From Tuberibacillus sp. Marseille-P3662 (GTDB lineage: Bacteria; Bacillota; Bacilli; Bacillales; Sporolactobacillaceae): a stretch of DNA of 64,000 nt. Positions 40,150 through 40,588 of this stretch are shown here, piece after piece (position 1 is the stretch's first letter; every line of letters begins with the position of its first letter). Under the pieces are notes generated by a model. The model had not been told where the DNA came from. It did not search any database and worked only from the letters and a program-made list of their open reading frames with translations. The position numbers and the translations under genes are program-made. The stretch is from assembly GCF_900178005.1 (NCBI RefSeq), contig NZ_FXBS01000006.1, forward strand, positions 1,395,585 through 1,459,584, given 5' to 3'.

Positions 40150-40400
40150 ATTAAAATAATCCCAAGTCTACGATTGGACTTGGGACGAATTAAATTCCGC
40201 GGTACCACCCACATTGATTCATATAGAATCCGCTTCAATATTAATAACCGTGTTCATCACGGACGCTTGCTCAGAACATGTACTTCACGGCCGTAGCTGC
40301 CTTAGTTTGCACCCTCCACTAAGTCTCTGTTACTGCCAGTCTATGACCCTACTGCGTGTTCATCATCGCTTTGCGTTTACATTTTATTTGTTTAGTGATT
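40150..40400 (-). promoter_or_regulatory. T-box riboswitch leader
   Basis: The minus-strand RNA contains the T-box hallmark AATCAATGTGGGTGGTACCGCGG (+ coordinates 40197-40215). Next comes the terminator cccaagtc-caatcgta-gacttggg plus a U-run (40161-40187). Upstream, Stem-I elements are present: GCGAUGAUGAA...AGUAGG, an AGAGA bulge, a distal hairpin cttagt-GGAGGGTGCAA-actaag, and a 3' UGAGCA. A sigma-A promoter (TTGACA-17-TATACT) lies at + 40431-40459. Confidence 0.7.
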
Positions 40401-40588
40401 CAAGTTTACTTTCTCACTTTTATGCGTTCAAGTATAAAATTAAAAAAGACAAATGTCAATGAAAAAATGATTTATAGTTATAATATGTGCTCCACATTCA
40501 TCTGTGATAGTTTTTTTTGTAACAATTTCTTTCTTGTTACCCGATAAAAAGTTTAGTAGGATAAATAAAGTATTAAGGGAGGGATCTG

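Follow-up and report, generated by a model that had tools for sequence, protein, structure and literature searches.

The stretch of DNA analysed here (the window; 64,000 nucleotides (nt) from Tuberibacillus sp. Marseille-P3662) carries on its minus strand a gene of the NhaC transporter family and, directly upstream of it, a T-box leader with a predicted tyrosine (Tyr) specifier codon. The parts of the leader and of the transcription unit were located by alignment to the Rfam T-box covariance model with Infernal, by the consensus fold of four orthologous leaders including that of the window (alignment A2), by folding, by scans for promoters, terminators and open reading frames, or by reading the sequence, and they are listed below in the order of transcription.

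40431..40459, minus strand: sigma-A type promoter with a -35 box TTGACA (40459..40454), a 17-nt spacer and a -10 box TATACT (40436..40431), 11/12 matches
40376..40424, minus strand: 5' leader extension (about 50 nt) from the presumed start site (start inferred) to Stem I, with a predicted hairpin GUGAG...AAUCAC
40269..40369, minus strand: Stem I with base pair GC/GC, kink-turn (K-turn) GAUGA/UGA, helix GAACA/UGUUC, specifier loop, upper helices, AG bulge and distal loop (Infernal and consensus fold)
40361..40357 and 40278..40274, minus strand: the two strands, GAACA and UGUUC, of the helix below the specifier loop (Infernal and consensus fold)
40350..40356, minus strand: 5' side of the specifier loop, CGC-AGUA with the S-turn AGUA (Infernal and consensus fold; AGUA invariant in A2)
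40279..40286, minus strand: 3' side of the specifier loop, GAA (40286..40284), G, UAC (40282..40280) and the purine A (40279) (Infernal, consensus fold and 21 leaders)
40324..40328, minus strand: AG bulge AGAGA (Infernal; invariant in A2)
40301..40323, minus strand: distal hairpin CUUAG-UGGAGGGUGCAAA-CUAAG, the putative tRNA-elbow stacking platform (Infernal and consensus fold)
40248..40262, minus strand: Stem IIA-like hairpin CCGUG-AUGAA-CACGG followed by UUA, with no Stem II proper (Infernal)
40216..40230, minus strand: Stem III, GAUUC-UAUAU-GAAUC (Infernal and folding)
40197..40210, minus strand: T-box core GGGUGGUACCGCGG, perfect over 14 nt (Infernal)
40181..40211, minus strand: antiterminator holding the T-box core, with helix A1 UGGG/CCCA, the 7-nt bulge UGGUACC and helix A2 GCGGA/UUCGU (Infernal)
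40153..40186, minus strand: intrinsic terminator GUCCCAAGUC-CAAUCGUA-GACUUGGGAU followed by UAUUUU, with a 10-bp hairpin at 40186..40159 (terminator scan)
40141..40149, minus strand: ribosome-binding site GGGGAAGGG (read from the sequence)
38735..40129, minus strand: nhaC-family transporter gene, 464 amino acids, GTG start at 40129 (open reading frame and family models)
38604..38631, minus strand: hairpin GGAUGUCCC-N10-GGGACAUCC about 100 nt after the stop codon, with a weak U tract (read from the sequence)

The element was confirmed as a genuine T-box leader on the minus strand. A permissive scan of positions 39900-40700 with the Rfam model RF00230 returned a match at 40375..40178 (minus strand) of 83.3 bits (E = 1.9e-18, model positions 1-219), which is far beyond chance, and the promoter and the terminator were picked up by scans that are independent of the T-box model. 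An earlier description of this DNA made from its letters alone (the sequence-only reading) had proposed a complete T-box leader at this place and had named failure of a T-box model to score the region as the outcome that would count against it; since the match lies far beyond chance, this outcome did not arise. The Stem I GA motif, the AGAGA bulge, the distal loop and the T-box sequence that it had listed were all located on the minus strand of 40150-40459, and so were the sigma-A promoter and the competing terminator and antiterminator. Its word “complete” did not stand, as Stem II is deleted and the score stays below the one that Rfam uses for inclusion.

In the Infernal alignment the model positions from about 106 to 132 (about 27 positions, Stem II) are deleted from the window leader; a Stem II with an S-turn was looked for in this leader and not found, the IIA-like hairpin being its sole remnant. 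The base of Stem I with its GA/K-turn motif (GCGAUGAUGAAC...GUUCUGAGC) was aligned to the model with high posterior probability. The orthologous leaders used for comparison came from Scopulibacillus darangshiensis (L081), S. daqui (L082/L083) and a metagenomic contig (L084), whose proteins are 57-62% identical to the window protein, and these Scopulibacillus and metagenomic leaders scored 92.2-97.6 bits against RF00230. The leader is a reduced T-box variant without Stem II that has been inherited within the Tuberibacillus/Scopulibacillus lineage.

Upstream of Stem I the homologous promoter and the AAACGCA sequence that follows it are kept in the Scopulibacillus leaders, and the 5' extension is longer in the window leader than in these. 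In the stretch from the -10 box to Stem I, leaders L081, L082 and L084 contain three to four 8-nt units resembling GCAYAAAA (e.g., GCAUAAAA GCAUAGAA GCACAAAA GCGAUGAA), of which the window (40376-40424, minus strand) has a longer, diverged version that includes the hairpin. These units may represent a reiterated duplication of the 5' end of Stem I.

The computed energies were -6.5 kcal/mol for the antiterminator and -15.7 kcal/mol for the terminator. The sequence GUCCCA (40186..40181) is common to both helices, which are therefore mutually exclusive, and because the antiterminator is the weaker of the two the default state is termination, as in every characterised T-box.

Alignment to the model and comparison of the leaders lead us to read the specifier as UAC (Tyr) at 40282..40280 on the minus strand. 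Infernal aligned this triplet to the codon positions of RF00230. Folding of Stem I as a single sequence was uninformative, the minimum free energy structure pairing bases within the specifier loop, and the codon was therefore assigned from the consensus fold of alignment A2. This fold comprises 37 pairs with compensatory changes in 13 of them; the K-turn base pairs are conserved or covarying, the helix of the distal hairpin is invariant, and its loop UGGAGGGUGCAAA fits the Rfam consensus GgUUGGUGaaA. The helix under the specifier loop reads GAACA/UGUUC in the window, GUAUA/UAUAC in L081 and ACAU/AUGU in L082, covarying at three of its five pairs. Above it the consensus fold leaves exactly 8 nt unpaired on the 3' side of the loop, G-A-A-N-U-A-C-R, which corresponds to the canonical S-turn GAA, one spacer, the codon and the purine that abuts the helix. 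The triplet is UAC in the window, L081, L082 and L084.

The same layout was found in 17 further, more distant NhaC-linked leaders (from the Bacillus cereus group, Neobacillus, Planococcus, Sporosarcina, Rummeliibacillus, Enterococcus, Vagococcus, Lactobacillus and Limosilactobacillus), in which GAA-N-UAY-N lies 36-40 nt after the AG bulge. Taken together, the motif is present at a fixed offset in 21/21 NhaC-linked leaders from Bacillaceae, Planococcaceae, Lactobacillaceae and Enterococcaceae. The only variation of the triplet is synonymous (UAU in three of the 17), as expected for a triplet that is read by tRNA-Tyr. A uniform regular expression caught an upstream decoy, GAAUUAU, in L018, L024 and L030, for which the Infernal alignments give GAA-U-UAC-C.

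The sequence-only reading had placed UAC followed by A in the specifier loop, as found here, where the four-leader consensus fold keeps UAC in the loop above the covarying helix; it had kept AUG for methionine (Met) as its alternative. With AUG as the specifier the gene would encode a methionine transporter like MetT, the putative methionine transporter under S-box control, which is itself a member of the NhaC superfamily, and an AUG is indeed found two nucleotides 3' of UAC in the window (UACAUG). Its U and G, however, form the first two pairs of the UGUUC/GAACA helix (U40278-A40357 and G40277-C40358), which covaries in the orthologues, and Infernal puts UAC, not AUG, on the codon positions of the model. 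Nor is AUG conserved among the NhaC-linked leaders: it is confined to the window and L066, with UACAUA in L081, UACAAA in L082, UACGUG in L084 and other sequences in nearly all other leaders, whereas UAY is invariant. The methionine specifier is hardly credible on these grounds and was rejected.

The gene under the leader is the one that the sequence-only reading had called an Na+/H+ antiporter by family, and it does lie directly downstream. Its product, WP_254901270.1 of Tuberibacillus sp. Marseille-P3662, is annotated as “Na+/H+ antiporter NhaC”; it scored 497.2 bits against the NhaC equivalog model TIGR00931 (cutoff 370) and 217 bits against PF03553 (cutoff 23), within the NhaC family TC 2.A.35, and reached 335 bits with the NCBIfam model for the arginine/ornithine antiporter ArcD of the same family. 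The hairpin that follows the gene suggests that the transcript probably ends there and carries this gene alone, and no conserved downstream neighbour gene was found among the orthologues. The 3' untranslated region also holds, at 38640-38712 (minus strand), four direct repeats with a 21-nt period (three copies of AGCGCAATTA and one of GGCGCAATCC) ahead of this hairpin.

An AlphaFold2 model of the protein had a mean pLDDT (predicted local distance difference test) of 84. Its top Foldseek matches were an integrative model of B. subtilis MleN, followed by TRAP SiaQM, DASS/INDY and AbgT carriers, and a sequence search of the PDB found no solved structure of an NhaC-family member. The predicted fold is that of the elevator-type IT-superfamily of Na+/H+-coupled solute carriers, not the NhaA-type/CPA antiporter fold. 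The closest PDB entry, 9a59_A, is an integrative model from cross-linking and artificial intelligence (AI) that combines B. subtilis MleN (NhaC family) with the methionine-binding lipoprotein MetQ, and this complex is another hint that ties the NhaC family to amino-acid uptake.

We interpret the leader as a transcription attenuator that senses tRNA-Tyr and turns on a tyrosine importer when tyrosine is limiting, a reading to which we give a probability of roughly 0.7 as a whole and of which the RNA part is close to certain. Transcription would start at the sigma-A promoter (40459..40431, minus strand), and tRNA-Tyr would dock on the nascent Stem I with its anticodon GUA paired to UAC (40282..40280) and its elbow stacked onto the platform formed by the AG bulge and the distal loop. 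In tyrosine starvation, uncharged tRNA-Tyr would pair its free 3' ACCA with the UGGU of the T-box bulge; by analogy with the established mechanism of the family, this pairing would steady the weak antiterminator and allow RNA polymerase to read into the NhaC-family gene. With charged tRNA the terminator would form and the gene would be off. The product would import tyrosine, coupled to Na+ or H+, and so restore charged tRNA-Tyr. The sequence and structure elements, their covariation, the conserved Tyr codon and the mutual exclusion of the two helices are established here, and binding of the tRNA, the sense in which the switch acts and what the transporter carries are what we infer in this scheme; tyrosine import appears the likeliest function of the gene. 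That a T-box marks the protein as really an amino-acid transporter, as the sequence-only reading put it, is a reasonable prediction that the literature has already made (PMC2494555).

The distribution of T-boxes in the family was surveyed across 89 related loci. None was present at the closest genome loci, 15 in all (43-51% protein identity; Fictibacillus, Paenibacillus, Shouchella, Exiguobacterium, Priestia, Metabacillus and the B. subtilis group), nor at L086-L089 (53-57% identity), and T-boxes reappeared only with more distant proteins of 38-44% identity. The proteins under classical T-box control formed a group (clade A) that was monophyletic in 99/100 neighbour-joining (NJ) bootstraps. 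The window and Scopulibacillus proteins were monophyletic in 96/100 and nested within clade B, the NhaC sensu stricto proteins without a T-box, which include P0042, clustering with UniProt P27611 (the NhaC of Alkalihalophilus pseudofirmus OF4). Clade A and the window clade were joined in 0/100 bootstraps, so that orthology to the BA4353-type group was not found. The window clade has no private departures at positions conserved in both clades, and a search for residues common to the two T-box-regulated clades found essentially none; there is thus no sequence signature of “tyrosine specificity”. On sequence, the window protein looks like an ordinary archetype-type NhaC under Tyr-T-box control.

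Two histories are possible, namely that the T-box is ancestral and was lost many times, or that it was gained separately in the window lineage. Stem I of the window clade is 0.57-0.70 identical to that of the Planococcaceae clade-A leaders and 0.45-0.64 identical to the others, values that come from short sequences with no outgroup and a shortened window entry, and both the window clade and these Planococcaceae leaders are without Stem II. The grouping of the two in a Stem I tree can be taken as a hint only. Loss is documented at L085, the metagenomic sister of L084, where the promoter and the leader start with the first Stem I bases (…AAACGCAUAAAAGCGAUGAAGAAC) are kept and the rest is deleted (about 1380-1500); this leader is a natural deletion derivative. 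At about 955-1100, some 250-430 nt upstream of its promoter, L085 also carries about seven GAAAGTGGATAGCAAAT repeats with a period of about 19-25 nt.

Several observations weigh against a tyrosine-sensing leader that controls a tyrosine importer. The 83.3 bits of the window leader are below the Rfam gathering score of 93 bits for RF00230, which is a consequence of the deleted Stem II positions, and a default Rfam scan of the whole window at the gathering threshold for this reason found no T-box, its sole match being a lysine riboswitch; the Infernal scan that the sequence-only reading had proposed as a check thus recovers the leader when run permissively and is silent by default. Stem II, the buttress of the codon-anticodon duplex in other T-boxes, is absent from the window leader, and the fold energy of its Stem I as a single sequence is no better than that of shuffles (z = +1.08). 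The tRNA scan of the window found no tRNA gene, tRNA-Tyr included. On the protein side, the window protein is 54% identical to the cluster representative of P27611, a homologue with measured Na+/H+ antiport, and the window clade carries 19 conserved clade-B-specific positions as compared with one weak clade-A position. Our literature search found no report of tyrosine transport by any NhaC-family member, and what nhaC does in tyramine operons is still called uncertain by a 2025 review; L066 and L045, two clade-A loci whose genomic context was inspected, lie outside tyramine (tdc) operons.

The protein-side observations would be accounted for if the T-box senses tRNA-Tyr while its target gene encodes a true Na+/H+ (K+/H+) antiporter that does not itself carry tyrosine and is induced in tyrosine starvation to keep up the ion gradient for another Na+/H+-coupled tyrosine carrier, or for pH homeostasis. 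The NhaC equivalog cutoff is passed (497 bits against 370), the 54% identical NhaC of OF4 and NhaC1-3 of S. aureus antiport in everted vesicles, and the window protein nests in the T-box-less NhaC clade with no distinguishing residues. Such vesicle assays are nevertheless compatible with a coupled organic substrate, as with MleN, whose antiport was reportedly shown by Wei and colleagues in 2000 to be malate/lactate-coupled. The predicted fold is that of solute carriers and not of NhaA/CPA proteins, and related members of the family are linked to Met, Lys and Arg/Orn. A generic ion function also hardly explains why, across many genera and in two distinct clades, the Tyr codon goes with genes of the NhaC family. 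The argument for an antiporter has been made in the same form for the NhaC-like genes behind lysine riboswitches (PMC11477304), whereas the genes under T-box control are overwhelmingly those for aminoacyl-tRNA synthetases, for biosynthesis or for transport of the amino acid that the sensed tRNA carries (Wels et al., 2008; PMC2494555). We consider an antiporter that leaves tyrosine to another carrier unlikely.

The score below the gathering threshold and the loss of Stem II could also be those of a decaying, non-functional T-box remnant, with the gene constitutive or permanently terminated, and the sister locus L085 shows that loss of most of the leader does occur in the lineage. A remnant would, however, not be expected to retain the K-turn, the S-turn, the codon with its purine, the AG bulge, the distal loop, the 14-nt core and the antiterminator/terminator switch, all of which are intact here, or helices that compensatory changes have upheld among leaders of proteins with an identity of only about 60%. 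Absence of Stem II is shared by the Lactobacillales and Planococcaceae NhaC leaders, and the glyQS leaders offer a precedent. Decay is therefore very improbable, and the attenuator of a tyrosine importer is the preferred reading.

Control of NhaC-family transporters by Tyr T-boxes has been known since 2008, and the window leader adds another case. With it, two distinct clades of the family are now seen to include members under Tyr-T-box control, the biochemically defined NhaC belonging to one of these clades, and this strengthens the long-standing predicted role of NhaC-family “antiporters” as amino-acid carriers. An archetype-like protein under a Tyr T-box, together with a sister clade that is also under Tyr-T-box control, raises the tentative and on balance doubtful proposal that symport of tyrosine (or aromatic amino acids) with a cation is the ancestral, general function of the NhaC sensu stricto group. 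If this were true, it would extend to the textbook antiporters of A. pseudofirmus and B. subtilis and to thousands of genes named by TIGR00931, and what was measured as Na+/H+ exchange would be a reaction that is partial or uncoupled. For annotation, the Rfam threshold is a blind spot for Tyr T-boxes without Stem II: as the window, Lactobacillales and Planococcaceae leaders all fall below the gathering score, under standard annotation the gene passes for an “Na+/H+ antiporter NhaC” without regulation, while recognition of the Tyr T-box yields a specific functional prediction. For the RNA mechanism, the leader is a natural Tyr T-box without Stem II, in which the weak UAC-GUA duplex would go unbuttressed.

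The window contains a second “antiporter” gene with a different sensor 4 kb away. The lysine riboswitch (RF00168, 82.5 bits, 44388-44575, minus strand) lies before a gene (42646-44250, minus strand) for a 534-amino-acid protein of the Na_H_antiporter superfamily, whose best NCBIfam match was Tet(35)-like (361 bits, below the cutoff); the pairing of lysine riboswitches with NhaC-like genes is already known (PMC11477304). The other neighbours encode a CotH kinase-like spore coat protein (36798-37871, minus strand), a staphylococcal-nuclease-like protein (40589-41323, plus strand) divergent from the T-box promoter region, and a cell-wall hydrolase with LysM and SleB-like parts (41479-42042, plus strand), which fits a spore-forming member of the Sporolactobacillaceae.

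Among known systems the closest are the Tyr T-boxes before NhaC-family genes of B. anthracis (BA4353), O. iheyensis, L. plantarum, L. acidophilus, L. johnsonii and E. faecalis, for which tyrosine transport was predicted (Wels et al., 2008; PMC2494555). As the pairing was catalogued there, the sequence-only reading rediscovers a published association. The window leader has the regulatory logic, the GAA-N-UAY-N layout and the PF03553/TC 2.A.35 family in common with this group and differs in the regulated protein, which bears the clade-B residue signature and not that of clade A. A Tyr T-box-linked NhaC-family transporter was reportedly also described in 2008, by Vitreschak and colleagues, under the name yheL; a literature search for yheL together with T-box gave no match.

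The Lactobacillales and Planococcaceae NhaC leaders resemble that of the window in having no Stem II and a score below the gathering threshold (62-76 bits), whereas those of the B. cereus group differ in having a full Stem II (147-152 bits) and an extra terminator module. This second, partial module (L017 at 1133 and 1242; L018, L020, L024, L030 and L035) lies about 109 nt past the complete Tyr T-box and its terminator and consists of a Stem III-like hairpin, a T-box core and an antiterminator/terminator with no Stem I of its own, i.e., a partial tandem. In Neobacillus massiliamazoniensis (L027) two complete tandem Tyr T-boxes, at 861-1080 (142.5 bits) and 1121-1340 (138.5 bits), precede the nhaC-family gene.

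The S-box-controlled MetT, a putative methionine carrier of the NhaC superfamily (PMC2940859), and the NhaC-like genes of unknown function that follow lysine riboswitches, such as CD1655 of C. difficile (PMC11477304), are alike in placing an amino-acid-sensing leader before a protein annotated as an Na+/H+ antiporter. They differ in that these leaders are metabolite-binding OFF switches before other protein subfamilies, with substrates that are equally putative. OF4 NhaC (P27611) and B. subtilis NhaC (YheL) belong to the same clade and the same TIGR00931 equivalog as the window protein, whereas their genes, judged by the loci of Shouchella, Bacillus halotolerans and others, are without a T-box and the proteins are described as Na+/H+ antiporters; for OF4 NhaC and for S. 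aureus NhaC1-3 the antiport was measured in everted vesicles.

On the RNA side, the prototype T-box is tyrS of B. subtilis, reportedly described by Grundy and Henkin in 1993. It is like the window leader in the UAC specifier, the UGGU bulge for A73-CCA and attenuation by a terminator and antiterminator, and unlike it in having a full Stem II with a IIA/B pseudoknot and in controlling a synthetase, where the window leader has no Stem II and precedes a transporter. The glyQS-type T-boxes, for which crystal structures of Stem I with tRNA exist from O. iheyensis and G. kaustophilus, are the functional precedent for T-boxes without Stem II and share the K-turn, specifier loop, AG bulge and distal loop modules of Stem I with the window leader. 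They differ in that glyQS has no IIA/B element and a strong GGC-GCC duplex, whereas the window leader has the IIA-like hairpin and would form the weaker UAC-GUA duplex.

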